DNA from: an uncultured Candidatus Saccharibacteria bacterium
GTDB taxonomy: Bacteria > Patescibacteriota > CAZHWT01
DNA length: 64,000 bases
NCBI GenBank assembly: GCA_964554805.1
Contig: CAZKPX010000006.1
Span: 11,356-75,355, forward strand
Reading direction: 5' to 3'
The notes below the pieces were generated by a model. That model was not told where the DNA came from and did no database searches. It saw only the letters and a program-made list of their open reading frames with translations. Made by a program: the position numbers and the translations under genes. This document shows, piece after piece, positions 5,288-55,277 of this stretch (positions are counted from its first letter, which is position 1; every line of letters starts with the position of its first letter).

Positions 5288-8200
5288 TTAGTTCCCCCAG
5301 CGAACGGCTCCGCCATTGTAGAGGACGTCGATTTGTTTTTGGGTTAGGGCGTAGTTGAAGATTTGGACGTCGTCGATTTGGCCATTCCAATAGCGACCGT
5401 TGTTATTGTTGGTTCGTGTCCCGATTTGGATGGAGGCGACATTATTCAATGTCGGGCCGGCCTGAATAGCAGATCCGTCCTTGAGGCCATTAAGATAAAT
5501 CGTAGCGGGTAGCCCTGCTCCATTTTGAACTGCGCAAGCATAGTACCATTGGTTAGTTAAAATAGTCGTTGCTCCACTCACAGATACCGCTGTGCCTTGA
5601 CTGGGAGTCATGGTCCAGCTCAGCCATCTGAGCACATTGCCCTCCACAGATAGACCCCACTCCCGCCCGCTAGAACCACTCGACCCAGCTCCTCCATAGC
5701 CATTCTGTTTGATAACGATGTTCTTCGATGCAGCGCCATTTAGCAAAACACTGTTATTGAACCAGGCACAAACGCTAAGCTGGTCACCGTAAAAGACATC
5801 TCCAATATCCACAAAGTCATCCACTCCATCAAAACTCATCGAAGCATTGCGCTTGCCCATCTTGCCTAGAGACCAGGCGGTGTTGGTGGAGTTGCAGGTG
5901 CCGGGGGTGGTTATTCCAGAGGCGCCAAGATTGAGGGTGCCGTGGAGGTGGTTGTCGGAGGCATCGTGGATGGTGGTGCCGGAGCATTCGTCCATGCGGT
6001 AGTGGGCGATGGGTTTGCCTTTGTTGTAGTCCCAGGCGACTTGGGCAGGGGTGCGGGGGTAGTTGTAGACTCTTATGTCATCTAGGCCACCATTAAAATA
6101 TGCGCTGCTCGCATATCCTATTAACATTTGCGCTGGGCCGGGCCATGGAGTGTAATTATAGGAGCTATCCGTAGCCTCATGTTGGCCGTTTACGTATAGC
6201 TTCACCTCCGAACCATTGCTGTAGGTAGCTACCACATGGGTCCATTTGCTTTCTGGGACATCGGAGCTTGATAACACATATGGCATCATAGCGCCAGCAT
6301 TGTTCTTCATGCGGAATGCTAGCTTTCCGTCATGAATCCTCATTTGATATGTTATCTGTTCCCAGCCAATAATATCTCCGTTGCCTCCAGGGTCGCGGTT
6401 TATCCATGCTTCTAAGGTGAAGTCAGCTGTAGGGGCAGGCGCTGAATTAACAGTAAATCTGTAGGTTGGTGGATGAATAGATACGGCAGTTCCATTCTTT
6501 CCAGGAATTCTCGGCACTGATCCTACTTGCGATGCTGTAAAGTTGTTACCACTAGTGTCTCTCGGATTGCCTGATTTTTCTTCAAACAGCCACTCCCCTA
6601 CTGGTTTGGCGCAGTAGTCGGTGGAGCCAGGGATGCAGTATTTGGAGTCTTGGGATTGGGAGGGCTGGGTGGCTGCGGCACCACTTCCGGAAGTGGTGGG
6701 TTCGGTTGAGGTGGCGCCTGCAATCATGGCTGAGGATTGGTTGTAGTCGATGGCGATTTGTTGAGGGGTGAGGGCTTGGTTGTAGATTTTGACTTCGTCG
6801 AGGGCTCCTATGTATGGATTAGAAGCTGCATATCCTGGATATAGAAGGCCTATGGTTGTGTTGTTTCCGTAAGTGCTTGATAAGGCGGATGGGTGAGTGT
6901 TTCTGGTGATAAGCTGTCCGTCGCGATAGAATGATATAAATATAGCCTGGGAGGTTTGCTCAAAAGTGTAGGTATAATAATGCCACTCGTTTAGGATGAG
7001 TGCTTCATTTGCAGAGTATGATGCGACCTGACTAGAATCATTGCTATAGGATACCATCATCCTATTGCTGTTACTAAGACCCGCATACCAATTCGAATGA
7101 TTTCCCATGGTAAAGAGTGTGGACGTACCGCCGACTGAAGCATCGGGTTTGGCCCAAAAAGACACTGATTTTTGAATGACTTTATAGGCTGGGACATCAC
7201 CTATCGATACATTAGCACCGTTGCCATTAAAATGTACCGCACTGCCACTAACTCCATTAACCCAAACCGTGTCTGTCATGGAGCCACTTAGTTGAGTAGC
7301 CCCAGAATCTCTAGTTATAGAGCCTTGATTTTCATCCAACTTCCAGTGGCCAACAGGGTTTAATTCATTGGGCATGCTGGATTGCATGTCGGCCAGGATT
7401 TGGCCTGGGGTGCGGGCGTAGTTGTAGATTTTGACTTCGTCTAGCTGGCCGTGTAAGTAGTAACTATTTACCGCATCATAGTGAATTCTGGATCCGAGCA
7501 CTAATGGCACAGGAGTATTGTTTTTGGTTATGCCTGGAGTGCTTGAGCCCCTCAAAACTCCATTTACATAAATTGATAAGACTGTCCCATCCCAGCTTCC
7601 GACGACATAATGCCATTGGTCGGCTGACAATGTCATGCCTGCTGATACCTGGTACGACGCAATACCACTAAAAATACTGAAACCCAGCTGACCACCTATT
7701 ATGCGTAAATTGTAATCCTTGTTGGCTCCGGCATCGTATTTGCCTATCAATACTTGATCGTCAGGGCTGCCTTGATCCAGTTTTACCCAGGTGGATACTG
7801 TGACAAGACTTGACTCGAGCATATGAGACGAAGCGGCCTCAATGTAATTGTCCTGACCATTCAACTTAGCTGATTTCCCTTTTTTGCCTTCAGCGTATTG
7901 GTGTCCTGTCCCATTCCAGGATCCTGAGTGGTTATTACCAGACTTGTCATAGGCAGTACCGCCAGAGCCTTCTTCGAAATCGTAATAGGCTACAGGCTTG
8001 GGGGCGGAGGTGTAGAGTTGGGAGATTTCTGGCTGGCTTAAATGCCTTGTATAGTAGCGGAGCTCATCTATTTCTCCATTAAATGCAGATGTATCAGCTT
8101 TCTTGCTACCAATCTTCATATGAGTTGGTGAGGTTGCTGGGCAAGTGGAGCCGTCGGGCAGAGCTATGGTTGAGGTAAGTTGTCCATTTAAATATCCTTT

Positions 8201-10108: not shown

Positions 10109-13100
10109 TCCACCCTCGCCACCACTATCCAGTTGGTTCCATTGCTGACTACAGTTAGGCTATGATACTGGCCGGCTAGAGATTCGCTGGCTTGACCGCT
10201 GATAGTTTGGGCAGAGGTGGTGGCGATATTGACGGTGTTGGAGGCGACGGCTTTGGCGATAGTGTATTGGCGTCCGGCTTTGTCGACTGCGCTAGGTAGG
10301 GTGATAGTTACGCTGCCGCCGGTGGTATCAACATTGACTACGCCGTGGCTGTTATTGAGAGTAGTGTTGGTGGATAGGCTGGTGTAGGGTTGAGTAGCAG
10401 AGCGGCCGCTAGTTTGGATGTCGGCGTAGGCGTCGGTGTTTTCGGAGACCTTGAGGGTGTTGGAGGTAGAGTCAAAGTAGGTGCGAGCAGTTCCGGCAGT
10501 CGATAGGCCAGGCGCAGTAGCACCGGTCCATGCAAGATAGTTGCCAATTGTTTTGTTTAGTATAGTTTGAGTTTGGCCATTGGTTGTTACAGTGTGTCGA
10601 CTAGAATTGCTGGTGAAATATAAATTTACTCCGTCGTATTCAATAGCACCTGGTTCGGGGGTAGCCAGGCTGGTTCCAGCGGTTAGCTTAAGGGGTGCAG
10701 TGCCTGCAGCGGCAGTACCGGCTCTAATGTGTAATCCGGCGGTGGGGGTGTAGATTCCGCCTAGGCCGAGTCTGGTGTTGTTGGCGGTGGAGATGATGCC
10801 GGAATCGAGCATAATGGCGCCATTGTTGTAGGTGGACAGGGTTAGGTCAGATGAGTTGTAGCTCTCCCCTGCCTGAATACGCAAGGGTCCGGCCGAGGTG
10901 ATGTTGCCTGAGGAGGAGTTGTCGAAACGTAGGTCGTGGGCGATGGACATATCTCCAGCAGCCATGAAAGCGACGGGGACGTTGGCGGTGATTTGGGATT
11001 GAGTGACTTTGAAGACGGATAGGCCGTCGGTCATCAGATTCATCAGGCTGCCGGCAGTACCGTTGGGGCCGATGTTGAGGCTGAAGAGATCACCGGTCAT
11101 GGTGGTAGCGGAGCCTGGGGTCCAGGATAGGCCAACTAGACCACCGGTGGTGAGGGCGGTGGAGGTGGAGGAGATGTTGAGGCCGCGGCCGGTAGTGAGA
11201 GAGTTGGCGGTGATCTGAGTTCCATTTTGGGTTGTCCCAGAAGATGCAATATCTAGTCGGGCACCAGGGGTGGTGGTTCCTAGGCCCAAGCGATTCAAAG
11301 AGTTATCCCAGAAGAAGTCATTATTGGAGGTTTGAGTGCTACCACCACTCCATACTACAACTCGCCCCACAAGGCCAGTTCCCGTGGCGTTGTTAGCGGG
11401 GACACAGCTATTCCAGGAAGCAGCTGCACCTGTAGTGGCAGTTAAGCATTGGCCTGTAGTGCCGGCTCCGAGTTGAGAGACGACGCCGGAGTCGTTGGTG
11501 TAGAGCAGGCCGCCGGTGGTGGTGTAGTTGGATAGAGTTGTAGCGCCGGTGGCCCGGAAGGTTCCAGCGACATCTAATTTGGCGCCCGGACTTGCATCTG
11601 CTGTTCCAATGCCAACATTTCCACTGGATGTCTCAAAAAGCACCCGAGTATTACCACTGCCATTTCTAAAGTAAAAATTACCGCCAGATTCCAGCCAGAA
11701 TTGAGAGCTCGAGGAAATAGTTAGGAATGCAGTCGAAGTGAGTTGAGACCCCCCATGGCCTGTTAATCGTAGCCCCTTGCCTGGGCCAGCAGTAAGCCAT
11801 GTGTAGGATACATCGTAGTTAATTGATAAAGCGTTTTCTGAGTTTTCTGCGTCATAAATTTGAAGAGCGCCACTTGGATTATCGGTACCTATTCCGACAT
11901 TTCCTTGGTCGCTGATAATCATGGATAGGGCTGGGCCTGCGCCGCCGGTCGTGACCTGCTTAGTGTAGAATCGCAAATCTCCCATCGAATTGCTGCCTGT
12001 TCGCTGATGAGTAATGGCTGCGCCTATGTTATTATCGGTGTTGGTTACTGAAAAACCGAGTCCGGCAGCCAATCCATTCTGAGCATAGGGGTGGCGCAGT
12101 ATTTGCAGATAATTGATGGATTGACTTAAGTCTGCACTTGCGTTGCGTGGAGCCACTACCTCAAGTTGAGCCTGCGGGGTAGTGTCGCCGATGCCAATGC
12201 GCCCCAATGCGGAGACTGTGAGCCGCTCTTGATTTCCAGTCTTGAGTCCAAAGTCATGATGACTAATGTTGCCAACCGAAGAAAAGAAGACGGAGCCGTC
12301 ATATTCCTGAAATATTCCTGTATCTACCCCATATGTGGTGTGGGTTAGGCGTATGCCGCTGAGGTCTGGTCCAGACAGGTGGAGCATCCGTCCCAAAATT
12401 GCTGAACCGCCAATCCTTGCTCCTGCTCCAGAAGGGGTCGTTGTTCCAATTCCTAAACTCTGGCTAACATTATCCCAAAACAACCCACTATTTGAAGACT
12501 GACTATCTGCTCCAGTAAAGAAGGCAATCTGCCCGTTAGCTCCAGTGCCGGTGATGGCATCGGTAGCAGCGCAAGCTCCCCAGTTGGGGGTAGTGCTGGT
12601 GGATTTGAGACATTGACCGGTGATACCTACTCCTAGTTGGGCTAGTTGTCCTGAGGCATTGGTGTAGAGGAGGCCGCCGTTGGTGGTGAATTGAGTTAAG
12701 GCTAATGGTCCGCCGATGGTTACTTTGCTAGCATAGCTAATGTTGCCGGTGGCTATAGTCCAGGGCGAGTATTTATTGGTGTTGCCCTGGGTCAAATTAT
12801 CAGTCGTAAAGCCAAGTAGATTAGTTAAAAAGCCGGCGTCGTTGGTGATGAGTGAGGTTTTGAGCCCTGATTGGGTAACTGAGCCAACGATAGTGCCGCT
12901 GGTGATGGCCAGGGTCAGGGTGGAAGTGCTTAGAGGTTTGAGATCTTGGAGCGAATTTGGAATAACGTTGCTATTTTGACTGGTGTCATTCTGGGCTGGG
13001 GGACTTGATGGTAAGTTGCTTAGGATCCAAGCCTTATCTCTGTCAGTTAGCAGTTTAGAGTTGGCAGGAATTTTCCCTTCGGCTATTAGATCCTCATAAG

Positions 13101-13344
13101 CTGAGAAGCGGTCGGAGACCATAGTGGAAACCATGGTGCCAACATTTAGATACTGTAGGCCGGATTTTCCCAGTAGCGAAGACATATCAACCGCACTGCT
13201 CTGGGCCAGTACTTGCTCAAAGTTGTCTTGGGTAACGGGTTGATGTTGCCCCTGTAGGCCTAGGATGACTTGCCTAGCAGGGTTGAAAAAGATGAAAGCT
13301 AGAACGACGCATGTGACTCCAGCAATCAGATAAATGGGTTTCAT
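10105..13344 (-). CDS. giant Thr/Gly/Ser-rich surface protein (fibre-like repeats), N-terminal TM anchor
   Basis: 1079 aa with N-terminal hydrophobic segment 'IYLIAGVTCVVLAFIFF'. Repeated 'TGQCL..T....W..C' and 'GLGTTTP' modules. The stop overlaps the downstream start as ATGA (translational coupling). Confidence 0.7.
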   Translation of the reverse strand: MKPIYLIAGVTCVVLAFIFFNPARQVILGLQGQHQPVTQDNFEQVLAQSSAVDMSSLLGKSGLQYLNVGTMVSTMVSDRFSAYEDLIAEGKIPANSKLLTDRDKAWILSNLPSSPPAQNDTSQNSNVIPNSLQDLKPLSTSTLTLAITSGTIVGSVTQSGLKTSLITNDAGFLTNLLGFTTDNLTQGNTNKYSPWTIATGNISYASKVTIGGPLALTQFTTNGGLLYTNASGQLAQLGVGITGQCLKSTSTTPNWGACAATDAITGTGANGQIAFFTGADSQSSNSGLFWDNVSQSLGIGTTTPSGAGARIGGSAILGRMLHLSGPDLSGIRLTHTTYGVDTGIFQEYDGSVFFSSVGNISHHDFGLKTGNQERLTVSALGRIGIGDTTPQAQLEVVAPRNASADLSQSINYLQILRHPYAQNGLAAGLGFSVTNTDNNIGAAITHQRTGSNSMGDLRFYTKQVTTGGAGPALSMIISDQGNVGIGTDNPSGALQIYDAENSENALSINYDVSYTWLTAGPGKGLRLTGHGGSQLTSTAFLTISSSSQFWLESGGNFYFRNGSGNTRVLFETSSGNVGIGTADASPGAKLDVAGTFRATGATTLSNYTTTGGLLYTNDSGVVSQLGAGTTGQCLTATTGAAASWNSCVPANNATGTGLVGRVVVWSGGSTQTSNNDFFWDNSLNRLGLGTTTPGARLDIASSGTTQNGTQITANSLTTGRGLNISSTSTALTTGGLVGLSWTPGSATTMTGDLFSLNIGPNGTAGSLMNLMTDGLSVFKVTQSQITANVPVAFMAAGDMSIAHDLRFDNSSSGNITSAGPLRIQAGESYNSSDLTLSTYNNGAIMLDSGIISTANNTRLGLGGIYTPTAGLHIRAGTAAAGTAPLKLTAGTSLATPEPGAIEYDGVNLYFTSNSSRHTVTTNGQTQTILNKTIGNYLAWTGATAPGLSTAGTARTYFDSTSNTLKVSENTDAYADIQTSGRSATQPYTSLSTNTTLNNSHGVVNVDTTGGSVTITLPSAVDKAGRQYTIAKAVASNTVNIATTSAQTISGQASESLAGQYHSLTVVSNGTNWIVVARVD

Positions 13345-18663: not shown

Positions 18664-18676
18664 AGCACAATAAAAA

Positions 18677-18700
18677 CAGCTCCGAAAGGAGCTGTTTTTT
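18677..18700 (+). terminator. rho-independent terminator
   Basis: cagctcc-gaaa-ggagctg stem-loop plus TTTTTT. It terminates two convergent genes. Confidence 0.75.
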
Positions 18701-18726: not shown

Positions 18727-21700
18727 CTACTCTACCCAGCTGAGAGTGGAGCTGCCCAGAGCTGGTTTTAGGATCTCCAGATATTTGGGCTGGAAGCGGA
18801 TGGTTTCTCCGGGGTTATTGTTGCCGGTACCAAGGTCTCTCTGAAGGCCGGTGGTTGCTCCGTTAAGGAAGTTTCCAGAGTTGCTAGTCGGCTGATTGCC
18901 AGCCAGACCTATCAGTGAGCCATTAATGATTAGAGGCTGGCCGCCAGCTTGAGTAACGAAGCTGCCACCGAAGATATAAGCGCCGTCCAGTCGAGTGACT
19001 GCTGAGCCGATGGTGATGTTGCCACTGACGATGAAGACTATGCCGGAGGAAGATGTGTCGTCGGTGATATTTTGATTAATAGCTAGATTGCCTTGGACAA
19101 AGTAGATTATTTGACTGTTAGGGCAGTTGGCATTGGTGATGGCGGTGGAGGCAACTGAGCGGGTCATAGTGTTGTTGGCGGCATCCGGAGGAATAATGAG
19201 GAAGGCTCTGCTTACTTGAGGGACGGGATTGGGGCTGCATGAGCTGAGGATATGGTTGCTTGTTGTGGCTGTGGCAGTGTCGATAGTGGTAATTGTGCCC
19301 AGATTACCGCGAACTGTTTGGAGGAGGCCTTGATAGGCTGGGCTGGTAATAGCTGGTTGATAGACAGGCACTTTCCATTGAGAGGTGGCTGCCAGCTTGT
19401 TGCTAGGGAGGTTTAGGCCCTGGGCATTGGCGGAATTGGCACTGACTAAGCCGGCCACGCTTTTGAAGAAGTATTGGTTGAATGGAATATTGAAGCTTAT
19501 TCCTCCGTTGGAGTGAACGTCGCCGGTGTTTCGGCTGGCGGCATTGCTGTCGATTTGAATCCATTTGGCGTAGCGGACTTCAAAGGTGGTGTAGGCAACT
19601 GGATTGTTGGCGCTACCGGCGGTTGATCGTGAGCCGACACAGATGGTGTAGATGCCTTGTGGAGTGCTGTCTGAAGCAGCTAGGAAAGCGACTAAGCTGG
19701 TTCGGCTGCTAGCTGGGAAAGTCATGGTGCCGACCAGAGGAGCTGCACTATTATCCAGATCGGCAGTTATGCCACTGGCCCCCCCTGAGCCACTCGTAAC
19801 GGCTGGGCTGTTGCCATTGTACGGTGCGCACAGAGCGGCTGAGTTGCTGCCGGGGTGAATGCCGACTACTGAGATGGTAATTGGATCGTTGCCCCAGGTA
19901 GCTTGCGATGGCAGGTAGTTCATATTGATGTCCTGAGTGGCTGAGTCACCGCCTGGTTCAGCGACGGTGCCGCTTGGAAGGGTGGTGTTGAATGATTGGC
20001 AGCTAGGGGTGGTAAATGGAGCGCCGGTTTGGAGATCGGGGCTGTAGCCATTGGTGGTGTTAGCCTGTAGAGTCCAGGTGTAATTGGTATTGCCGACTAA
20101 GCCGGCGGCGTTAGCGTTGGAGACGTTGCCAGCTAGGTCGAGAGTTTGAACTGGGTTGCCACCGGTAGAGATAATTAATCGATAACCCGTGATGTTGCCG
20201 CTACCGGCCGTCCAGGTGAAGCTAGCTGAGGTGCAGGTTGGCGTGGTGGCTGGGTTGAGTACGGGTTGGCGAATAACTGAGTAGTTGAAGCTACGCTGGT
20301 TGTCTGCAGGGTAGGTGCTTTCAGTGGTGCTGTTTTGGAAGTTGGCAAAGACTCGAGCGCTATAGTCAGCAGCATTGCCTTCCTGCCAGAAACTTGGCGC
20401 ACCTACAACGCTATTTGGCGAAGTTGAATTTTGATTGTTGGCCCAGTTAGCGCCACTCCATGAGCTGTAGGTGCGAGTTTGACTGGCATTAAATATGCCG
20501 TGGTTGAGAATGTAGAATGGAATATCGGACATTTCGTTGGCATTGACTTGGCTAGGACGGTTCTTATAGATAGCAGTTTTTGTGCCGGCCGGAAGAGTCG
20601 AAGGCCCGTTGTTCTGCATGGAGGCATAGAAATAGATATTCTCGTTGACGTTGAAGACAGACCGAGATGCCCCAGCATTGTTGGCTAGATTGAAGGCGGT
20701 GGCGACTAGGTTGGGTGGGTTGGCGATGGTAATGCTGCCTAGACTAATGTTGTCGGTGGCGATGACGGCGTTGAAGAGGTTGTAAAACCTAATACGCTGA
20801 TCGGGCGCAGGGACCGAGGAGTTAATGCTTTGGTTTCCGGTTGGTGCTCCTGATCGCACTCGAGCTGTGAATCGAAGACAATATTCAGCAGTGCTGTGAC
20901 TGTAGGGGACATTGGCATTAATCGTGTCGTTGCTGCCCGAAAGGGTTACGTTAGCTGTCCCAATTTGAGTATTTGTACTGCAATCGTACACACCAGCGAC
21001 GGCAGTGATGCTGTTATTGCCGAAGACGCCGGTATTGAGTTGGTCTGTGACTGTGAAGTGAGTCGGGGTGATAGTATTGCGGATAAAATTTAAGGCAGAG
21101 GTCATATCGGGCTCTTTTGTAGCAATGCGACCTGAGTTAATTGCAGCAGTGATTGTATAGTCTATAAAATCTATACCAGTAACATCATCTGTATTTGAAT
21201 TGGGATAGTCTAAAATATAACCGCAAGGAGATTGATACCTATTGGCTACTGGCGGGGTCATACCAAATGAACCATCAAGCTCATTGCCAAGTTGGTCGCC
21301 TCCGGGTATCAGCATTAATTGATTGAATCTCTGGTTTGCGATGTTTAATGAGCCAGGCACTCGTGACGTACTCCCTCCGGTAAATACGCACTGACCATCC
21401 CAAGCGGTTAACCCATAACGTCGGCTACCAAAGGCAGGATAGTTGTGAACACCGTCAGTTAGGGCAACGAGAAATCTGCCACTACTTGTGCCTGTACTAA
21501 ATAAGTTATTTCCATCTCTCAGACCTCTGTGCAAATCTGAGTATGCTCCTCCAACAGAGGCCTTTACGCCGTTTGTGGCATTTGTTCCTATGGCGTTTTT
21601 TAAATTTGTTATGTCAGTATTACCAGAAATGGTTGTAAGAGGAAAATGTGTTTCAGGGAAGTATCCAATGTCATCGTACAAATTTTCATTATAGCCGAAA

Positions 21701-22056
21701 GAAACAATACCAACTTTAACTAAGCCTGGGTAATTGATCAATGAATCTGCAAAACTGCGCATCGGTACTTTCATATTAGTGATTTCAGTTGCCATTGAAT
21801 ATGAGGCATCTACCACAAACACGACTTCAAATGGTGGGAGGTTAATGTTAGTCGGCTTAGGAATTCGTATTTCTAAATTGGCAGTTTGGCCGGGAGTGTA
21901 TGAGGTGGCACTGCTTGTGACAACTTTGTTAGCAGCAGCCTGGATAGCCTGAGGGCTTGAGCTAAGGATGATGGTGATGGCAATTAGTGATAGTGTGCTT
22001 AGACGGAAAGCCTTTTTAGAAATGTTCTTTATCTGACGACTGGAAAGTTTTGACAT
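18727..22056 (-). CDS. giant surface protein with N-terminal vWA (MIDAS) domain; paralog of 24965-27499
   Basis: Signal/TM N-terminus. vWA signature 'VVFVVDASYSMATEI...VGIVSFG'. The C-terminal about 250 aa resemble those of the 844-aa paralog ('TRLDGAYIFGGSF...GLQRDLGTGNNNPGETIRFQPKYL'). Confidence 0.8.
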   Translation of the reverse strand: MSKLSSRQIKNISKKAFRLSTLSLIAITIILSSSPQAIQAAANKVVTSSATSYTPGQTANLEIRIPKPTNINLPPFEVVFVVDASYSMATEITNMKVPMRSFADSLINYPGLVKVGIVSFGYNENLYDDIGYFPETHFPLTTISGNTDITNLKNAIGTNATNGVKASVGGAYSDLHRGLRDGNNLFSTGTSSGRFLVALTDGVHNYPAFGSRRYGLTAWDGQCVFTGGSTSRVPGSLNIANQRFNQLMLIPGGDQLGNELDGSFGMTPPVANRYQSPCGYILDYPNSNTDDVTGIDFIDYTITAAINSGRIATKEPDMTSALNFIRNTITPTHFTVTDQLNTGVFGNNSITAVAGVYDCSTNTQIGTANVTLSGSNDTINANVPYSHSTAEYCLRFTARVRSGAPTGNQSINSSVPAPDQRIRFYNLFNAVIATDNISLGSITIANPPNLVATAFNLANNAGASRSVFNVNENIYFYASMQNNGPSTLPAGTKTAIYKNRPSQVNANEMSDIPFYILNHGIFNASQTRTYSSWSGANWANNQNSTSPNSVVGAPSFWQEGNAADYSARVFANFQNSTTESTYPADNQRSFNYSVIRQPVLNPATTPTCTSASFTWTAGSGNITGYRLIISTGGNPVQTLDLAGNVSNANAAGLVGNTNYTWTLQANTTNGYSPDLQTGAPFTTPSCQSFNTTLPSGTVAEPGGDSATQDINMNYLPSQATWGNDPITISVVGIHPGSNSAALCAPYNGNSPAVTSGSGGASGITADLDNSAAPLVGTMTFPASSRTSLVAFLAASDSTPQGIYTICVGSRSTAGSANNPVAYTTFEVRYAKWIQIDSNAASRNTGDVHSNGGISFNIPFNQYFFKSVAGLVSANSANAQGLNLPSNKLAATSQWKVPVYQPAITSPAYQGLLQTVRGNLGTITTIDTATATTSNHILSSCSPNPVPQVSRAFLIIPPDAANNTMTRSVASTAITNANCPNSQIIYFVQGNLAINQNITDDTSSSGIVFIVSGNITIGSAVTRLDGAYIFGGSFVTQAGGQPLIINGSLIGLAGNQPTSNSGNFLNGATTGLQRDLGTGNNNPGETIRFQPKYLEILKPALGSSTLSWVE

Positions 22057-22060
22057 AGTG

Positions 22061-22687
22061 TTATTTGGCTTCTGTTAATTTGTACCCTGATTGCTTGAGC
22101 TGGTCTAGGCTTTCGTTGAGGGTATGGACATTGCGGATATTCTTAGCTTTTAAAATAGCGACTGCTTTGTCTAGGTCTTCTTCATTGGGGCTATAAACAA
22201 CCATGTCGACATCGGTATTTAAGTAGGCAATCTGTAGTCCGCTTAATGGAACGTTTGTTGCGCCTACAATATGTTGTTTATCAAAGTCCTCTGTGGGCCG
22301 GATATCCATAACTATAAATCCGTCTAGAGCCCAGGCGGCTTCGTCTTTGTCTTCTTGGATTTTAGCTACCTGATCTTTGAAGTCGCTTTTTAAATTTTCT
22401 GCAGTAGTCTGTTTAACTGAAGTTTGACTATCTCGATTTTGGTTAGGGAGTAGTTTGAAGTAAAAAAGAAGGCCGATGGCTATAAAAAAGGTTACGGATG
22501 CCAGAACAATAATATGTTTTCTGGAGTATGGTGGTAACAAGAATTTCATAAGAATAGTTCTAATACATATCATTGTGTCTTTTACATGCTTGCTTGTCAA
22601 CCCTGATTTAGTCGGGGTTGGGTGTGTTTTTTGTGTGCCACTGTAGGCTGCGACGATTCTTTCAGCATGACTGGAATGCATATGCAA
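22061..22687 (-). CDS. membrane-anchored rhodanese-like domain protein (catalytic Cys replaced)
   Basis: Single TM helix followed by rhodanese fold 'FIVMDIRPTEDFDKQHIVGATNVPLSGL...MVVYSPNEE'. Ser occupies the active-site Cys position. It sits 4 bp upstream of the vWA gene. Confidence 0.6.
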   Translation of the reverse strand: MHMHSSHAERIVAAYSGTQKTHPTPTKSGLTSKHVKDTMICIRTILMKFLLPPYSRKHIIVLASVTFFIAIGLLFYFKLLPNQNRDSQTSVKQTTAENLKSDFKDQVAKIQEDKDEAAWALDGFIVMDIRPTEDFDKQHIVGATNVPLSGLQIAYLNTDVDMVVYSPNEEDLDKAVAILKAKNIRNVHTLNESLDQLKQSGYKLTEAK

Positions 22688-22807
22688 CTAAACTTTGCTA
22701 AACTCTGGCCCCCCGGAGCAGGACCTTATTTGGCAATGTGATTTTCACTTGTCCTATAGATAAATATTTAACTCAGATATAGAATAAATATTGTAACCTA
22801 TAGCCTA

Positions 22808-22836
22808 TTGACAGATGCTTATATATATAGTATAAA
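22808..22836 (+). promoter_or_regulatory. sigma70-like promoter (TTGACA-17-TATAAA) in an AT-rich divergent intergenic region
   Basis: TTGACA at 22808-22813, 17-bp spacer, TATAAA at 22831-22836. It lies upstream of the 23187 gene. Confidence 0.45.
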
Positions 22837-23186
22837 TGAGCTATAAGACATCGCGACTATGAGGTCTATGCACGTTTCTTTTAATATGCTATAGTCCTCA
22901 TGACGCAAAGTCTTTTGTCGTACCTTGACAGGCGCATATAGTGTAAATCTTAAACTTAGTCCCCTACTCTTTTCTTTGATAAGCAGCAGAACTAGGCCTA
23001 GCTACCAGTGGTAGTTGGTCTGGCTCTGCTGTGGAATCAAGGACTGTAGGGAATCCAGTCTTGAATCGCAGGAGGTCGAAGAGCGACCTTGGGATCAATT
23101 GCCAACTCAATGGTATTGATCACTCCCAGCGGAAACTCAGGCTGGGAGTTCCAGTCAATATTCCATTCAAGGAAAGGAGACTGGCA

Positions 23187-24680
23187 ATGTCCCAGTCTAA
23201 GAAGTTCGTCATCGTTCGTTCGCTTGTCGTGTTTGTGATGCTGATGGTCTCGCTCGCCGGGACTCAATCGGCACTCGCTGGTCCGTCGTCTTCGATTGAT
23301 CCGTGGGTCATGATGGCCCAGGATCAGGAGGAAGGCTCGACAGAAGCGCCCGCCGAGACCGTCGCGGTCGCGGATGAGCCGACGGCACCAGAAGTGGTGC
23401 AGCCACAGAATGTTGTCGTCAATGAGCCTGCTGTTCCGGAAACGGTGCAGCAGGAACCGATCGTCGAGCAGCCCCCTGCGCCGCAAGCGGTGCAGCAGGA
23501 GCCGATCATTGTCGACGAAACGACTGAAGTCGAAACCGAGGAGACCGTCATGGTCTCCGAAGAATCGACCGAGGTTGTCACTGAGGAGGCGACGGAAGTC
23601 GTCACCGAAGATCCGACGGAAACGCCGGTGACGGAAGAACCTGGTGGCGCGTGCGATTTCAGCGCTTGCGTTGAGATTGTCAGCACTGACTGCGAAGCAG
23701 GCACGCTGACGTTCTCTGTCGAAGTCCGTGTCGGTGGAGCCGCGAACGTCGAAGCTTACGCTTACGATGCTCGCGGATATGATGAAAGCGCAATCGTGTC
23801 TTTCACAATGAGCACTGGGTCTGACACGGCAACCCTTCCTAATGGTCCTTTCGAAGGATCCACAACCTTTGCAGTTGATGCTGGCTTCAGCCATGCGGAA
23901 ACTACTGTGGTGTGCGGGGGGACTTCAACCGAAGAACCTACGGAAGAACCGACGGAAACGCCGGTTTCAGAGGAGCTCGTCATCGATGCTTCTCTGCAGG
24001 GGTGCACCGGGATCAACGTCGCGCTTTCCGGCGCGGTTGAAGGCCAGGTCTACACGGTCAAGGTCTTCGTCTCCGAGGTTCTCATTGCCAAGTTCGACTA
24101 CAGTTCTCCTCAGCTGGTTGAGCATATTCTGCTCACCGGTGATACGGTGACTGTCAAGGTCGAAGGCGCCGAAAAGTGGACGGAGCCTGTTGAAGACTGT
24201 GATGCTCCAACCGAGACCCCGGATCCGACAGAGGAGCCGACGGAAGAGCCAACCGAGGAGCCGGTAACCCCGGAGCCCACGGAGGAACCAACCGAGGAGC
24301 CGACTGAAGAACCGACCGAAACGCCGGGCCCGACGGAGGAACCGACGGAAACGCCGGATCCAACCGAGGCTCCAACCGAGGAACCGGTTGAAGAACCGAC
24401 CACCACTCCTGGTGGCGGGTCGACAGACGGTCCGACCCAGCCTGGCTCCGGCCAGACTGGCGGCGGTATCACCGACACCGGGAGCGGAACGGCCTCCAAG
24501 TCGACGACTTCGTCGCCGACGACGGAAACGGTCGACCCAGTCACTGGCTTGCCGGTGTCTGGGTCTGGACCGTTCCTCGTCACTTCGAGTGGCCTGGCGA
24601 TCTTGGCCGGGATCATGGCGATGGTTTTTTGGTGGCATGCGGATTTCTTCCGTTCTGCCTGCAACTATCGCCGGAGGTAA
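23187..24680 (+). CDS. secreted Pro/Thr/Glu-repeat surface protein with C-terminal sorting-signal-like tail (LPVSG + hydrophobic + RRR)
   Basis: RBS AGGAGA precedes the ATG. Signal peptide 'VFVMLMVSLAGTQSALA'. (PTEE)n low-complexity linker. Ends with 'GLPVSGSGPFLVTSSGLAILAGIMAMVFWW...RRR'. Markedly GC-rich relative to its neighbours. Confidence 0.7.
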   Translation: MSQSKKFVIVRSLVVFVMLMVSLAGTQSALAGPSSSIDPWVMMAQDQEEGSTEAPAETVAVADEPTAPEVVQPQNVVVNEPAVPETVQQEPIVEQPPAPQAVQQEPIIVDETTEVETEETVMVSEESTEVVTEEATEVVTEDPTETPVTEEPGGACDFSACVEIVSTDCEAGTLTFSVEVRVGGAANVEAYAYDARGYDESAIVSFTMSTGSDTATLPNGPFEGSTTFAVDAGFSHAETTVVCGGTSTEEPTEEPTETPVSEELVIDASLQGCTGINVALSGAVEGQVYTVKVFVSEVLIAKFDYSSPQLVEHILLTGDTVTVKVEGAEKWTEPVEDCDAPTETPDPTEEPTEEPTEEPVTPEPTEEPTEEPTEEPTETPGPTEEPTETPDPTEAPTEEPVEEPTTTPGGGSTDGPTQPGSGQTGGGITDTGSGTASKSTTSSPTTETVDPVTGLPVSGSGPFLVTSSGLAILAGIMAMVFWWHADFFRSACNYRRR

Positions 24681-24964
24681 GGTGAAAGGTTTACACTAGT
24701 GCTACCGTCACAAAACGGTATGACAATAGTGTGAGAAGACACCTGGGGGTGGTTAGCAGCAATGCCGACCACCCCTTTCTCATTTTAAAAATATAAGGGG
24801 TGAGATTTGAAATTTTAGAATCTGTTTGGGCGAGGATGACAAGCCGTGTTTATTTTTAACACCTAGATCCTATACTTCAGCTTTGCTTGCGTGCTTCGGG
24901 CTTTGCCCTCCGTAGCGCCTGCGGCTCCAGGATGACAAGTCGTGTTTATTTTTAACACGACTTG

Positions 24965-27499
24965 TCAATTTTCTTGCCAGGATAGGCTGCTGCCGCCGAG
25001 GAGGCTGTTGACTAAGTGCAGGTACTTGGGTTGATAGATGATGGATTCGGCGGGATTGTTGTTGCCTGTGCCGAGGTCTCGTTGGAAGCCTGAGGCTGAG
25101 CCGGTGTGGAATCGACCAGTTGCGTTGGATGGATTTTTGCCGCCTAGGCCAATCAGTGATCCCTTGGTGGTGATGGCTTGGTCGCCTACTCCATTGCTGA
25201 ATGACCCGGCAAATATATACATACCATCAAGTCGGGTGACATTGGGCTGGACGATGATGTCGCCTTGAACGATGAAGGTTATAGATGAAGCATTGGTATC
25301 GTCAATGATATTTTGGCTGACAGTTAGATTGCCGTCGACGAAGTAAATGGTGCTGGCGCTGGGGCAGTTGGCATTGGTAAGACTGGTGAGCGAACCTCTG
25401 GTTAGATGGCCGGCGATGCGGAAAGCTTTGGTCTGACCAGCTGCACATTGAGCCATGGTGTGAGGCTGACCACTGCCGGCAGGAGTAGCGGGTCGGACTT
25501 CAGGTGCACCGGCATTGTTGGTGGCTGTTTCTAATAATTTGGCGTATATAGGCGAGTTGATGGTTTGATTGTAGGCGCCTATTCTCCACTCTACTAAGCT
25601 AGAAAGTCTTCCTGAAGTGATGCTAAGAGCACTAGCTGTTGAGGATGATGAGCTGACTAAACCAGCCAATCCTGAGCTAAAGAAATATTGTGTTGGTGGA
25701 ATACTGAAGGTAATGCCGCCATTGGAGTGAATATCGCCACTATGTCGACTAGCCGAGGTGGCGCCAACTTGCAGCCAAGAAGCATAACGGACTTCAAAGG
25801 TGCGAGCGACTATCGGGTTATTGGCTGTGCCAACTGCTGAGCGGGAAGCAATACATAGTGTGTATGTGCCTTGAGTGGCGGCTGAGGTTGTTAGTTCTAG
25901 ACTAACTTGGTTACGTGACGAGGCTGGGAATGTATAACTGCCACCCGTGGCACCGTCATGTGGTATATGTAAGTTTATGTCGCTGCCCGAGCTGACAGCT
26001 GGACTGGCATTGGTGTAGGCTGAACAATTATTTGTACCTGACAAAATAGCGACTACTGATGTTGTGAGCTGGCCATTGCCCCATGTTGCTAAGTCGGGTA
26101 GGTACGTAAGGTTGATATTCTGGATAGCGGCTGCGCTGCCTGGTTGAACAATGGTGCCTTGAGGAGCTTCGGTGTTGAAATTTGGGTTGGGGGTTGGGTC
26201 AGTGATAACAATCGAACCCGGAGCGATGGTATCAGTTCTGATGATGGTGCCGTTGTTATTGCGGTGATTGATACTGTTGTTGATTGTGTTAATAGTGGTG
26301 CTGCCGGTGGTTGGGCTATCTTTGACAGTGGCGGTAAAGCGAACGCAGAAGTTGGTTTCGCTGCCGAGATTGGTGATGTTGCCCGAAATAGTTAGGCCAA
26401 CGGCAGTTAGAGCAATGGTGCCAATTGGCGTGTTGGTACCACAGCGGTAGACTGCAATATTATCTATGCCCTTGGCAATATCGAAGACGTTGCTGTTGAG
26501 AACATCGTTTAGCTGGATGGTTTGGACTTGCTTGAGTAGTGTCGCTTCATCAATGATGCTGTTGAGATCTGGGCTGATGCTTGAAACTAAGGCAGAATTT
26601 GGATAAACACGGCGAGGCCAGTCTGCCATATCATCAAGAAGGTCGCAGGCAAGTGTGGCCCAGCCTCGTCCACCTTCGCCTGGCCTACAGACTGATTCTA
26701 TAAGCGGAATGTTGTGGTTGAAGCCCCAGCTAACATAGGCGTTTCGGCCGACTTGAGCTGTAGTGCCTCCGCAAGGCCCAGTGGTGCTAGTATTGAGGGT
26801 GCGAGTATAATCGGTGCCAATTTTTAGAGGCAGAATGCGGAACGTTGATGATTTCAGAGTAATTGCAGGTCCCAGGGTGGCTGAAGGTGCGGTGGCAGTG
26901 CCATTGACTATGACCGGACAATTGCCGGATGATCGCAAGCCAGTGCCGGGATTGACTGGATTGGGAGGGGTGTTGGCGTAACCATCTGTTAGCAGGAACA
27001 TATACTTTTTGGCTGTACTGTTAGTAAACAAGGCATTGCCGTCCTGCATACCTTTGACGATATCTGAATAAGCACAACCAGGACAGCCAATATACATATT
27101 ATCAATGGCTGCTTTAAAAGAACTAGCACTGGCTGCAGTAATAACGGACGGACCAAATGAGCCGTATCCTTGACCGAAGCTGCGCAAGCCTATACTCACC
27201 ATGCCGTAGTACGGAGCTAGGTCATCGGCAAATTTTTTAAGAGCGGTTCGGGCAGTATTGACTTCGCTGCCGATCGATCCTGACAAATCCATGACCACCA
27301 CAACTTCGATTGGATCAACTGAGCTGGGAGGAGTGGTGGGCTTGGTGACTTGAATTTCAATTGGCACTTCATCGCCCGGGGCGTATGGTCCGCTGTTGGT
27401 GGTATTTTTTGGAGCAATGTCAGCCTGAGCAGGTAGCGGTACCCACAGACTAACGACTACCAAGAGGCTTAAGAAGATGGATAAAAATTTACTGCTCAT
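24965..27499 (-). CDS. giant surface protein with N-terminal vWA (MIDAS) domain; paralog of 18727-22056
   Basis: Signal peptide. 'VVVVMDLSGSIGSEVNTARTALKKFADDL' DxSxS motif. C-terminal region is homologous to the 1109-aa paralog. Confidence 0.8.
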   Translation of the reverse strand: MSSKFLSIFLSLLVVVSLWVPLPAQADIAPKNTTNSGPYAPGDEVPIEIQVTKPTTPPSSVDPIEVVVVMDLSGSIGSEVNTARTALKKFADDLAPYYGMVSIGLRSFGQGYGSFGPSVITAASASSFKAAIDNMYIGCPGCAYSDIVKGMQDGNALFTNSTAKKYMFLLTDGYANTPPNPVNPGTGLRSSGNCPVIVNGTATAPSATLGPAITLKSSTFRILPLKIGTDYTRTLNTSTTGPCGGTTAQVGRNAYVSWGFNHNIPLIESVCRPGEGGRGWATLACDLLDDMADWPRRVYPNSALVSSISPDLNSIIDEATLLKQVQTIQLNDVLNSNVFDIAKGIDNIAVYRCGTNTPIGTIALTAVGLTISGNITNLGSETNFCVRFTATVKDSPTTGSTTINTINNSINHRNNNGTIIRTDTIAPGSIVITDPTPNPNFNTEAPQGTIVQPGSAAAIQNINLTYLPDLATWGNGQLTTSVVAILSGTNNCSAYTNASPAVSSGSDINLHIPHDGATGGSYTFPASSRNQVSLELTTSAATQGTYTLCIASRSAVGTANNPIVARTFEVRYASWLQVGATSASRHSGDIHSNGGITFSIPPTQYFFSSGLAGLVSSSSSTASALSITSGRLSSLVEWRIGAYNQTINSPIYAKLLETATNNAGAPEVRPATPAGSGQPHTMAQCAAGQTKAFRIAGHLTRGSLTSLTNANCPSASTIYFVDGNLTVSQNIIDDTNASSITFIVQGDIIVQPNVTRLDGMYIFAGSFSNGVGDQAITTKGSLIGLGGKNPSNATGRFHTGSASGFQRDLGTGNNNPAESIIYQPKYLHLVNSLLGGSSLSWQEN

Positions 27500-27977
27500 A
27501 GATTACAAAACCTCGTTCGGAAAGGGCTGTGAGTGGATCATTGAGAGTATAAATCTTAGTAATGCTCTTTGATTTGAGGATGGACTTGGCTTGATCGAGT
27601 TGCTCAATTGAATCGGAATAGACTACTACGGTGGCTCCTGAACTGATTGCCGTGCGGTCCAACCATGCAAGCGGCACGGATATGGCGCCTTCTATATGAG
27701 ATTTGGTAAAGTCCTCAGTGGAGCGAATATCGTACATGACAAATTGGTTATCGCCCCAGGCAGCTGATTGATTGCCTAACTGGGCTAAAGTGAAAGGAGC
27801 AGTAATGTCCTGGTTATTGCGGAGATCTTGGGCTTGAATGGTGGTGGCTGTGGTTGTATTGGCTTGACGATCTGCCTGCATTTTCCAGGCAAACAATACG
27901 CTAATGGCTATAAAAAAGGTTAAGCTGGCTAGGACAATGATATGTCGTTTGCCGTATGGGGGCAGAAAAAAAATCAT
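27489..27977 (-). CDS. membrane-anchored rhodanese-like domain protein (no catalytic Cys); paralog of 22061-22687
   Basis: TM helix plus 'FVMYDIRSTEDFTKSHIEGAISVPL...VVVYSDSIEQ'. It overlaps the downstream vWA gene by 11 bp. Confidence 0.6.
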   Translation of the reverse strand: MIFFLPPYGKRHIIVLASLTFFIAISVLFAWKMQADRQANTTTATTIQAQDLRNNQDITAPFTLAQLGNQSAAWGDNQFVMYDIRSTEDFTKSHIEGAISVPLAWLDRTAISSGATVVVYSDSIEQLDQAKSILKSKSITKIYTLNDPLTALSERGFVIYEQ

Positions 27978-28096
27978 ACAATGGTTGGTCGATTTGATCG
28001 ATGTATAGATTTATTGTAGCTTGCCTGTATTAGGTTGGCAAGCCGGTGATGGTTGCTTGTAGGAATTGAGCGGGATGTTTGGGTATAATTGGGGTA

Positions 28097-29527
28097 ATGC
28101 CCAGTTTATTTGATGGCCCTTTATCGATTGTAGATGTAGAGACTACCGGAACTTCCTATAAGAATGGTGGGGTAATTGAAGTGGGGATCGTGCGGGTCGA
28201 AGATGGGCAGGTGGTAGCAACATACGATCAATTAATTAATCCTGGCAGTCAGTTGCCGGCATTTATTACTAACTTAACAGGCATTCATGCTGATGATTTG
28301 GTCGATGCTCCAGCCTATGCTGATGTGGCTGATGAGGTGTTTGACATCTTGGATGGCAGTGTGTTTGTGGCGCACAATGCTCGGTTTGATTATGCCTTTA
28401 TTAAAGAGGAATTTCGTCGATGCGATTATCGATTTAACCCTCAATTGTTATGTACGGTTCGCTTGTCCCGTCAGCTCTTCCCTACTATTTCAAGTCACAA
28501 GCTCAGCTCGTTAATAAGTCATTTTGGTATTCAAACACTTGATAGACACCGAGCCTATGCCGATGCGGTGGCAACTTGGCAACTATTGCAGATAATGGCC
28601 GATCAGAGGTCTGAGGCCGTTTTTGATATGGCGGTTACACAGCAACTCAAGACGCCCAGTTTGCCAACTCAACTGCCGTTGCAGGCGATGAGCGAGCTGC
28701 CTGAGGGTCCTGGTGTTTATCTATTTACCAATAGTCAGGGCGCCACCTTGTATGTTGGCAAAAGTATCAATATTAAACAGCGGGTGTTGTCGCATTTCAA
28801 TGATGATCACCGCCTGGTTAAGGAAATGAAGATTGCCCAGGAGATTGCCGATATCCAAACAATTCCTACGGCTGGCGAGCTAGGTGCTTTGCTGTTGGAG
28901 TCTAAGCTGATCAAAGATATGTTGCCGATACATAATCGGATGCTGCGCCGTCAATCAGAAATGGTGGTGGCCATAAAGGGTCAGGATAAAAAGACCGGCT
29001 ATCCGACAGTCGAAACCCATCGAGGGGTGACGGCTGATGAAGTGCAGCGGATTGGCTTTGAGGCAGTGCTGGCCGTGTATAAATCAGAACGTCAAGCCAA
29101 AGAATCGTTGTTGGCTATGGCCAAAGATAATAATTTATGTCAAAAGTGGCTTGGATTACAAAAAACTACTGGGGCTTGTTTTGCTCATCAATTGAAGCAT
29201 TGCCCCGGGGCCTGTGTGGGCAAGGAGTCCGTTTTGGATTATAGTCGTCGATTAGATGCAGCATTTGCGGCCAGTCGATTGGCTAATTGGCCATATTCAG
29301 GGCCGGTTATGGTGACAGAAGTTCGTGATATGGAGTGGAGCGTCAGCTATATTATTGATCAATGGGCGGTTGTCGGCACCATAGAGCAGAGAGATCAGGA
29401 TATTCAGCATCGGTCATATGCAGGGCGATTTGATTTGGATGAGTACAAGATTTTGAAACGATACTTGAGTAATCCACGACAGACAGTACAGCCCTTTCAG
29501 TGGTCTCTGCCGCTGAAAGAATATTGA
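28097..29527 (+). CDS. DnaQ-like 3'-5' exonuclease fused to GIY-YIG (UvrC/Cho-like) nuclease domain
   Basis: Exo I 'VDVETTGT', Exo II 'FVAHNARFDYAFI', Exo III 'YADAVATWQL'. Then GIY-YIG 'GPGVYLFTNSQGATLYVGKSINIKQRVLSHF' and a Cys cluster 'CPGACVGKE'. An alternative TTG start exists at 28079. Confidence 0.85.
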   Translation: MPSLFDGPLSIVDVETTGTSYKNGGVIEVGIVRVEDGQVVATYDQLINPGSQLPAFITNLTGIHADDLVDAPAYADVADEVFDILDGSVFVAHNARFDYAFIKEEFRRCDYRFNPQLLCTVRLSRQLFPTISSHKLSSLISHFGIQTLDRHRAYADAVATWQLLQIMADQRSEAVFDMAVTQQLKTPSLPTQLPLQAMSELPEGPGVYLFTNSQGATLYVGKSINIKQRVLSHFNDDHRLVKEMKIAQEIADIQTIPTAGELGALLLESKLIKDMLPIHNRMLRRQSEMVVAIKGQDKKTGYPTVETHRGVTADEVQRIGFEAVLAVYKSERQAKESLLAMAKDNNLCQKWLGLQKTTGACFAHQLKHCPGACVGKESVLDYSRRLDAAFAASRLANWPYSGPVMVTEVRDMEWSVSYIIDQWAVVGTIEQRDQDIQHRSYAGRFDLDEYKILKRYLSNPRQTVQPFQWSLPLKEY

Positions 29528-31055: not shown

Positions 31056-31130
31056 TGCTATAAGGTGTATTTTTGAAAAGACCGGCCGCGCTTTGACCTT
31101 GAGGGTTAAATGGTGTATTATCCTATAGCT

Positions 31131-32186
31131 ATGAAGATTTATGTTGGTATGAGCGGTGGCGTCGATAGTTCATTGACGGCAGCACTGCTTAAAGAACAAG
31201 GCCACCAGGTGACTGGTGTATATATGAAGAACTGGGCCGAAGAATGGTCTATTTTTGATTGTCCTTGGGCTGATGACCTGGAAGATGCTAGCAAGGTGGC
31301 TGAGCAGCTAGGTATTCCATTTAAGGTCTTTGATTTGCGTCAGCAATATCACGATACGGTGGTCAGTTATATGCTGGCCGAGTATCAAGCTGGTCGGACT
31401 CCCAACCCTGATGTGATGTGTAATCAGGAAATGAAATTTGGGGTGTTTATGGATTTGGCTTTTGAGGATGGAGCTGAAGCGATTGCTACCGGGCATTATG
31501 CTCGAGTCAAAGAGGGTAAGTTGTATGCCGGTTTAGATACAAACAAAGATCAGAGTTATTTTTTATACCGTGTTCGCCCTGAGATTTTGACTAAGGTCTT
31601 TATGCCGATTGGTGAATATAAAAAGCCAGTGGTTCGGCAAATGGCAGCAGAGCGTGGTTTGATTACTGCTCATAAAAAGGACTCTCAAGGCATCTGCTTT
31701 ATCGGCAAAGTTGATATGAAGGACTTCTTGCGTCAGTACATTCAGGCGGAGCCGGGTGAAGTGATTGATGAGCATGGCAAGGTGGTCGGCTATCATCAGG
31801 GGGCAGTTTTTTATACCATTGGTCAGCGATCAGGCATGGGCGTGGGTGGAGGCAAGCCGTATTATGTGACCGGTAAGGATATGGCTAAGAATCAGGTTTT
31901 TGTAACGACTGATAAGGAAGACAAAGATTTATGGGCTGTAACGATCACCATCGATCAACTGCATTGGTTGACCGAAAAGCCTGCGGCGGGCCAAAAATAT
32001 CAGGTTCGGCCACGATACCGATCGCCGTTGATGTCGGCTGAAATTGCAATTGAAGACGAGCGGGCTCAGATAAAGCTTGATAAACCAGCCCGAGCTATCG
32101 CCGAAGGACAATCGGTGGTTGTTTATGATGGAGATTTGGTGGTGGGCGGGGGAATTATCGTCGGCAGCACTTCGCCTGACAAGTAG
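31131..32186 (+). CDS. mnmA: tRNA-specific 2-thiouridylase
   Basis: PP-loop 'VGMSGGVDSS', 'CNQEMKFG', catalytic Cys region 'SQGICFIG'. Length matches MnmA. Confidence 0.9.
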   Translation: MKIYVGMSGGVDSSLTAALLKEQGHQVTGVYMKNWAEEWSIFDCPWADDLEDASKVAEQLGIPFKVFDLRQQYHDTVVSYMLAEYQAGRTPNPDVMCNQEMKFGVFMDLAFEDGAEAIATGHYARVKEGKLYAGLDTNKDQSYFLYRVRPEILTKVFMPIGEYKKPVVRQMAAERGLITAHKKDSQGICFIGKVDMKDFLRQYIQAEPGEVIDEHGKVVGYHQGAVFYTIGQRSGMGVGGGKPYYVTGKDMAKNQVFVTTDKEDKDLWAVTITIDQLHWLTEKPAAGQKYQVRPRYRSPLMSAEIAIEDERAQIKLDKPARAIAEGQSVVVYDGDLVVGGGIIVGSTSPDK

Positions 32187-55276: not shown

Positions 55277-55277
55277 T

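Follow-up and report, generated by a model that had tools for sequence, protein, structure and literature searches.

A stretch of 64,000 nucleotides (nt) from an uncultured Candidatus Saccharibacteria bacterium (GenBank assembly GCA_964554805.1, contig CAZKPX010000006.1, positions 11,356 to 75,355), referred to here as the window and numbered from its first letter, carries a two-gene cassette in two paralogous copies. Each cassette couples a small membrane protein of rhodanese fold that lacks the catalytic cysteine (the partner) to a giant secreted protein headed by a von Willebrand factor type A (vWA) domain with a metal ion-dependent adhesion site (MIDAS). The same pair is found at related loci, and sequence comparison indicates that the partner goes with the vWA head of the giant, not with its C-terminal module. 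We see about an even chance that the two proteins form a two-subunit surface adhesin module, in which the partner would be a dedicated membrane-bound docking or holding subunit for the vWA head. Physical binding between partner and giant, the adhesin function and the nature of the ligand are features that we infer.

Two paralogous cassettes in one window

A preliminary description of this DNA had reported two paralogous bicistronic cassettes whose genes overlap or abut, and open reading frames (ORFs) and pairwise alignments confirm both of them. In cassette 2, the ORFs overlap by 11 nt (ATGAGCAGTAA); in cassette 1, 4 nt lie between partner 1 and giant 1. Three of the four ORFs keep the boundaries first given, and the start of the fourth, partner 1, has been moved from 22687 to 22549. 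Its TTG-started ORF (22061-22687, minus strand, 208 amino acids, aa) has an N-terminal extension that is not conserved, and partner 2 aligns to this ORF only from Met47. Because the paralogue aligns from that residue and a promoter-like site lies at 22600-22572, translation probably begins at the ATG at 22549 (162 aa) and not at the TTG at 22687. Identity between the giants is 47% in the C-terminal 424 aa (E 4e-106) and falls to 27% in the N-terminal half (E 9e-27); the partners are 40% identical (E 2e-38). Family hidden Markov models (HMMs) run over the window detected only these two giants and two partners. The genes and their domains are as follows.

27489..27977, minus strand: partner 2, 162 aa; Pfam Rhodanese E 4e-7, PDB relatives Alr3790 and PspE, one transmembrane (TM) helix
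24965..27499, minus strand: giant 2, 844 aa, secreted and vWA adhesin-like (BLAST paralogy, Pfam, AlphaFold2 model, Foldseek)
26495..27322, minus strand: vWA/MIDAS head of giant 2, aa ~60-335 (Pfam, alignment invariants, AlphaFold2 model)
24968..25552, minus strand: predicted C-terminal beta-helix domain of giant 2, aa ~650-844
22061..22549, minus strand: partner 1, 162 aa from the probable ATG at 22549; architecture as partner 2
18727..22056, minus strand: giant 1, 1109 aa; architecture of giant 2 plus an insert of ~240 aa (aa ~450-689) containing an fn3 domain
21154..21918, minus strand: vWA/MIDAS head of giant 1, DASYS at aa 83-87 (Pfam and family HMM)
20038..20244, minus strand: fn3 domain, giant 1 only, aa 605-673 (PF00041, E 4.6e-6)
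18730..19155, minus strand: predicted C-terminal beta-helix domain of giant 1 (paralogue alignment and family HMM)

The pair recurs across relatives

We examined whether partner and giant stay together at related loci, which are labeled L004, L005 and so on to L064 (P0009 is the label of one type of relative protein). On the contigs of close relatives, a gene of 163-179 aa that matches Rhodanese stands directly upstream of the giant, and in L004 (two pairs), L005, L008 and L009 it overlaps the giant or sits within 17 nt of it. The two pairs of L004 flank a gene on the opposite strand, much as in the window, and those of L008 are in tandem; L005 and L009 hold one pair each, in the same housekeeping neighborhood. 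Distant vWA relatives of 700-780 aa are paired likewise, with one pair in L014 and two tandem pairs in L015.

To widen the sample, a metagenome DNA-pattern scan for the terminal-domain motif PAExxxYxPKY supplied 57 additional loci, and all 72 loci were scanned with three HMMs of our own (terminal domain, partner, vWA head). The count that followed was restricted to unique proteins whose 5' end was complete and which had 700 nt or more of DNA upstream. A partner ORF ending -15 to +144 nt from the start was present for 15 of 17 vWA-headed proteins, compared with 3 of 12 vWA-less ones (Fisher p = 0.0013, a value that is indicative only, as de-duplication was crude). The co-occurrence statistics proposed as a check in the preliminary description thus favor the pairing, for loci that were all found through the giant. 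Tandem duplication of the pair recurs in the window, L004, L008, L010, L015, L036 and L064, and the identity matrices of partner and giant are correlated (r = 0.89 for 16 pairs; r = 0.51, Mantel p = 0.016, in the close family), which agrees with duplication and divergence as a unit. Downstream of a partner in L036 (5738-7899, minus strand), an ORF for the vWA part (504 aa) and one for the terminal domain (216 aa) lie in different frames with a 4-nt overlap, which suggests a single giant broken by a frameshift or by faulty assembly.

Partner ectodomain and giant head change together

The three vWA-less giants with a partner all belong to pairs of the P0009 type. In these, the giant has lost DxSxS, with no head detected by our vWA HMM, and the PPYxxHII-TM module of the partner is retained (E 1e-6 to the L009 partner, N-terminus only) in front of a different, non-rhodanese ectodomain without a Pfam match. 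Distant lineages show this pattern independently: small TM proteins are encoded directly upstream of vWA-less terminal-domain proteins in L059 (E 5e-7), L064 (6e-4) and L053 (3e-4), and they resemble the rhodanese partners in the N-terminal TM part only. Other vWA-less members have no small TM protein upstream, so that the modular scheme is not universal. Because the ectodomain changes with the head as the TM module is kept, the rhodanese domain would be expected to work on or with the vWA head, not the C-terminal domain.

This modularity also allows a broader reading, which is tentative and, in our estimate, rather unlikely. The cassette would be one instance of a general and so far unrecognized surface-display system, in which the shared C-terminal beta-helix domain would mark out a large class of secreted surface proteins and a small TM module, conserved within lineages, would bear interchangeable, head-matched ectodomains, which may be rhodanese for vWA and other, unnamed domains for other heads. 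Such a system may be a non-covalent counterpart, in small-genome bacteria, of sortase/LPXTG sorting or of C-terminal-domain sorting by the type IX secretion system (T9SS), and the dead rhodanese may have been newly enlisted as a MIDAS-site ligand or cap.

A membrane-anchored rhodanese fold without its catalytic cysteine

The window partners score 30.2 and 30.8 bits against Pfam Rhodanese (PF00581; cut-off 22.2), and a profile search of the PDB returned the single-domain rhodaneses Alr3790 (E 1e-7) and PspE (E 1e-4). Partner 2 runs from an LPPYxKxHII motif through a TM helix and a linker into the rhodanese-fold domain (aa ~75-160); in both window partners the single TM helix spans aa 13-31, and the conserved LPPYxKxHII lies just before it. 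Neither protein contains a cysteine, and both read VVYS in the strand at whose end the catalytic Cys is normally found. The same holds more widely: the catalytic Cys is missing in 20 of 20 unique rhodanese partners, replaced by Ser or Gly (VVYS or VVYG), and most of these are Cys-free throughout. The rhodanese-fold partner without a catalytic Cys, as first proposed, is borne out, and by sequence these proteins belong to the rhodanese homology superfamily without being catalytically active sulfurtransferases. With the catalytic Cys lost, the domain should be unable to transfer sulfur. The partner has the same fold, by sequence profile, as PspE and the cyanobacterial Alr3790, and differs from them in its N-terminal TM anchor, its predicted extracytoplasmic location and its being encoded with a vWA giant. 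In its replaced Cys it is like the inactive rhodanese homology domains, such as those of MAP-kinase phosphatases, in which the domain has a docking role.

We give next to no credence to the view that the small protein is a working sulfurtransferase, sulfur-relay or redox protein, for instance one tied to mnmA, with its adjacency to the giant incidental. The confirmed fold speaks for it, as does mnmA adjoining or lying near the cassette in the window, L004, L014 and L015. It has to contend with the uniform loss of the catalytic Cys, with a domain predicted to lie outside the cell, and with overlapping or abutting ORFs and duplication as a unit, the last two of which tie the partner to the giant.

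The orientation of the partner was assessed from charge. Distant partners with two TM helices have no Lys or Arg before TM1 and 3-6 in the inter-TM loop, and the positive-inside rule applied to this difference predicts that both termini, and with them the rhodanese domain, are outside. The single-TM partners are compatible with an N-in/C-out orientation, an assignment that draws partly on homology with the two-TM forms.

In close-family partners, the most conserved stretch is the short N-terminal motif with the TM helix, which is kept even where the ectodomain is replaced. Such conservation would suit a transmembrane signaling or coupling subunit that relays ligand engagement via the LPPYxKxHII-TM segment to a cytoplasmic or membrane machine. 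We nevertheless regard this role as improbable, given a cytoplasmic part of only ~12 residues, no conserved signaling gene nearby in the window or the related loci, and an N-terminal motif that differs completely between the close and distant partner lineages.

Giant proteins modeled with a vWA head and an Ig-like stalk

Both giants begin with a Sec-type signal peptide, judged by eye from a basic n-region, a hydrophobic core and an AxA site (PAQA/DI and AIQA/AA; aa 1-26 in giant 2). The vWA/MIDAS head that had been proposed for both is upheld by Pfam VWA, the DxSxS motif and fold matches. Against the Pfam cut-off of 23.8 bits, giant 1 scores 26.7 and giant 2 falls just below at 23.7. The MIDAS motif is DASYS in giant 1 and DLSGS (aa 71-75) in giant 2, whose head also has the alignment invariants S145-D146 and LTDG (aa 170-173), and DxSxS is conserved in all vWA-type members. 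By these sequence criteria, the giant heads are vWA/MIDAS domains with an intact metal-site motif and predicted metal binding.

An AlphaFold2 model of the 844-aa giant 2, built from a 38-sequence alignment (mean predicted local distance difference test score 74), places the vWA head before two immunoglobulin (Ig)-like sandwiches (aa ~327-570), a poorly predicted linker and a C-terminal beta-helix. Foldseek comparison of the full-length model with the PDB ranked tip adhesins of sortase pili first (PitA, SpaC and RrgA, E 1e-12 to 3e-9) and integrin beta headpieces next; the head fold also matches integrin beta I domains. The suggestion that the giants are adhesins is consistent with this fold match. 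PHROGs and NCBIfam scans of the giants gave no meaningful matches.

The resemblance to RrgA (2ww8), SpaC (6m3y) and PitA (7w6b) covers the vWA/MIDAS head with Ig-like stalk, Sec secretion and similar size. At the sequence level, identity is only 10-14%, and the differences are substantial: the giants lack LPxTG and have neither a sortase nor a backbone pilin gene nearby, their C-terminus is a predicted ice-binding-protein-like beta-helix in place of a CnaB domain and sorting signal, and a dedicated rhodanese-fold membrane partner goes with them. Neither LP.[TSA]G nor a C-terminal TM segment was found in 11 giants checked, and the window giants have no TM helix beyond the signal peptide, no lipobox and no LPxTG.

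Might the giants be pilus tip subunits, either sortase-assembled or of the type IV/Tad kind, with the small gene a known pilus accessory? The best structural matches are indeed tip adhesins of sortase pili, and proteins with LPXTG-like tails are encoded beside the cassettes in several genomes. We still judge this highly improbable, as LPxTG and a C-terminal TM tail are absent, the signal peptides are Sec-type with AxA and not prepilin-type, and the scanned window ORFs and the related loci yielded no gene for a sortase, a pilin or type IV pilus assembly. Among type IV/Tad pili, vWA proteins include PilY1, TadG and S. sanguinis PilB; the giants, unlike these, have no class III (prepilin) signal peptide, no pilin domain and no pilus assembly genes nearby. 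By their Sec-type AxA signal peptides and lack of pilin features, the giants are not the Tad or type IV minor pilins that would have refuted the preliminary description. As candidate identities, sortase pilus and type IV pilus subunits were both rejected on the missing LPxTG and prepilin signal peptide.

A widespread C-terminal beta-helix domain

The C-terminal domain comprises ~190 aa, ends in giant 2 with the motif PAExIxYQPKYL....LG....SWxE and is predicted to fold as an ice-binding-protein-like beta-helix. No Pfam or NCBIfam model matches it, and a profile search of PDB sequences matched no solved structure. An exhaustive profile search with a threshold of E <= 1e-3 returned 729 cluster representatives. 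Among them are six close relatives that match over the full length (968-1143 aa, E 4e-137 to 5e-47), and a second group consists of 700-800-aa proteins with a vWA and a C-terminal domain. In hundreds of further surface proteins (125-1930 aa), the likeness to the giants is confined to the last ~130 residues, and the N-terminal parts of 64 carriers scanned include VWA, CARDB, LamG, F5/8-type-C, PA14 and SdrD_B domains. Of the conserved C-terminal module noted earlier, the sharing by both giants stands; its unity does not, since it is a composite of a family-specific Ig-like part and the widespread terminal domain. From its distribution, the latter is a domain in its own right, typical of secreted surface proteins.

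At the sequence level, the domain has no relationship to ice-binding proteins (DUF3494, IBP-1 fold; 5uyt, 3wp9, 7bwx, 6bg8), and a Pfam scan of 64 C-terminal-domain members gave no ice-binding protein or DUF3494 match. Unlike ice-binding proteins, it forms the very C-terminal end of diverse surface proteins, with no hint of ice binding. DUF7305 (PF23981) was considered as its identity and rejected: the only match, in giant 2, scored 19.4 bits and so stayed below the cut-off of 27, and 64 other carriers had none at E <= 1e-3. Word-index homologue searches with the small protein, the 844-aa giant and an 8-sequence alignment returned only the query, those based on the giant over the best 8000 candidates. 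Scans of genome contigs with giant alignments produced pattern matches, none of which was upheld by tblastn.

A proposed surface adhesin module

We propose the following sequence of events. The small gene, translationally coupled to the giant, would yield the two products in probably matching amounts. The giant would be exported by Sec via its cleavable AxA signal peptide, without a membrane anchor of its own, and would mature into an N-terminal vWA/MIDAS head, an Ig-like stalk and a C-terminal beta-helix. The partner would reside in the membrane with its rhodanese-fold domain outside the cell, where the Cys-less domain, instead of transferring sulfur, would serve as a protein-binding module specific for the vWA head. 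It would thereby dock or hold the head at the membrane, for permanent retention or masking; alternatively, it may capture the N-terminal head as it emerges from the translocon. A dedicated docking or holding subunit is suggested because the partner ectodomain is matched to the adhesin head.

The capture alternative can be carried further, to a partner that acts only transiently in export or folding, as a holdase, metal-loading factor or MIDAS shield, and has no place in the final structure. It would take up the head as this leaves the Sec translocon and let it go when the C-terminal domain has anchored the giant. We rate this as rather unlikely overall. It fits a vWA head that is translocated first and a partner that matches the head and not the C-terminal domain. 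Retention may rest on the C-terminal domain, given that vWA-less proteins with this domain and without a rhodanese partner exist, and the analogy to tip-adhesin folds puts the head distally. Set against this, the translational coupling points to matching amounts, as one would expect for a stable complex more than for a chaperone working catalytically, and no known chaperone has a rhodanese fold. Sequence alone does not separate permanent docking or masking from transient capture or maturation.

Several observations weigh against the proposed two-subunit module. In L010 and L012, one vWA-type giant, encoded by the third gene, lacks a partner; its copies follow two pairs in a row and are the two exceptions in the count of 17. 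All loci were retrieved via the giant, so that the count does not cover how often a partner occurs without one; a metagenome scan with the partner motif LPPY[SG][KR]xHI gave no matches. A single orphan partner was seen, a rhodanese-type protein of 282 aa in L064 (2202-3050, plus strand) with no vWA giant directly behind it; next come genes for a 182-aa TM protein resembling the partners and for a terminal-domain protein that lacks vWA, and a normal pair lies beyond these. Shared phylogeny accounts for part of the mirror-tree correlation. The charge bias in the single-TM close family is weak (2-3 Lys or Arg before the helix, 0-3 after). Lastly, a membrane-tethered head binder would be geometrically awkward if, by analogy with pilus adhesins, the head is the distal tip, an arrangement workable only with a transient interaction or fold-back of the giant.

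Expression signals and genomic surroundings

Both cassettes have a promoter-like site before the small gene and a hairpin after the giant.

28013..28041, minus strand: promoter-like site upstream of partner 2 (TTGCCA, 17 nt, TACAAT; consensus match only)
22572..22600, minus strand: promoter-like site upstream of the ATG at 22549 (TTGACA, 17 nt, CACAAT; consensus match only)
24933..24967, no strand assigned: 14-bp hairpin directly 3' of giant 2
18672..18699, minus strand: 12-bp hairpin with T-run directly 3' of giant 1

The hairpin at 24933..24967 may be a terminator for both strands, shared with the convergent gene at 23031-24680. That gene (plus strand) lies between the cassettes and encodes a low-complexity, Pro/Thr/Glu-rich secreted protein, as do genes between or divergent from cassettes in L009 (15-1079, minus), L010 (3363-4070, minus) and L004 (4791-6320, minus). 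The four proteins are barely similar to each other in sequence, and each ends with an LPXTG-like motif (LPVSG, LPNTG, LPEAG and PPSTG), a hydrophobic stretch and a basic tail, which by sequence is a sortase-type wall-anchoring signal.

The genes around the cassettes in the window are housekeeping genes (ClpP, trigger factor, MurB, MnmA, RNase III, a Cho-like nuclease) and genes for other large surface proteins. mnmA (tRNA 2-thiouridylase) adjoins a cassette or lies within 3 kb of it in the window (31110-32186, plus strand), L004 (44-1090), L014 (4456-5691) and L015 (7447-8547), that is, in the window lineage and in distant lineages with partners <25% identical. This proximity could reflect conserved gene order in small genomes or be a relic of an ancestral sulfur-relay rhodanese. 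Divergent from cassette 2, the gene at 28079-29527 (plus strand) encodes a fusion of an RNase_T exonuclease with GIY-YIG; the fusion occupies the same position in L005 and L010-L013, and precomputed matches of the relatives add UvrC_M and Cho_C.

Two further giant genes, at 5288-10108 and 10105-13344 (both minus strand), overlap by 4 nt. The first product (1606 aa) has six LamG-type (Laminin_G_3) domains and DUF2341 and is unrelated to the vWA giants. The second (1079 aa) has no Pfam or NCBIfam match; it was tried as a third paralogue and rejected, as BLASTP showed no similarity. Toward the far end, the window encodes a Fic/DOC protein (53023-54132), a helix-turn-helix (HTH) plus SocA/Panacea antitoxin-like protein (60823-61521), an Lcl_C-domain protein (55251-56234) and an 808-aa BNR/Sortilin-type beta-propeller protein (57894-60320), all on the plus strand. 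Several ORFs of 150-500 aa at 38-50 kb have no Pfam match. Across window positions 1-64000, with genes on both strands, GC skew is positive in nearly all 2-kb bins and the cumulative skew climbs steadily, with no origin or terminus signal over the 64 kb.

Relation to known systems and significance

The pairing of a vWA/MIDAS head with a separate membrane-associated partner has parallels. CglB of Myxococcus gliding is described as a masked vWA adhesin (PMC9946355), and in integrin alpha/beta heterodimers, too, a vWA/MIDAS adhesive head works with, or is held or masked by, such a partner. Integrin alpha/beta and CglB are like the cassette by analogy only; their partners, a beta-propeller or outer-membrane Glt proteins, are unrelated in fold to rhodanese, with no sign of common descent. 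A literature search of partial coverage found no paper tying rhodanese to vWA proteins in the Candidate Phyla Radiation (CPR), Patescibacteria, Saccharibacteria or gene-neighborhood studies, in line with the earlier statement that the pairing is not a described system. The giants would be vWA adhesins of the cell surface whose obligate partner and terminal domain have both gone undescribed, and the family of that domain (729 representatives) could itself be defined as a new domain.

In many bacteria, attachment centers on vWA/MIDAS adhesins. To our knowledge, all well-studied examples are anchored by sortase, pili, lipidation or outer-membrane machinery. The giant family shows none of these routes and has instead a co-encoded dead-rhodanese membrane protein and an unnamed C-terminal domain. 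If the partner binds the head, the cassette would represent a new use of the rhodanese fold and a new way to retain, mask or mature a MIDAS adhesin. It would also provide a handle on how giant surface proteins are displayed in poorly known small-genome bacteria.

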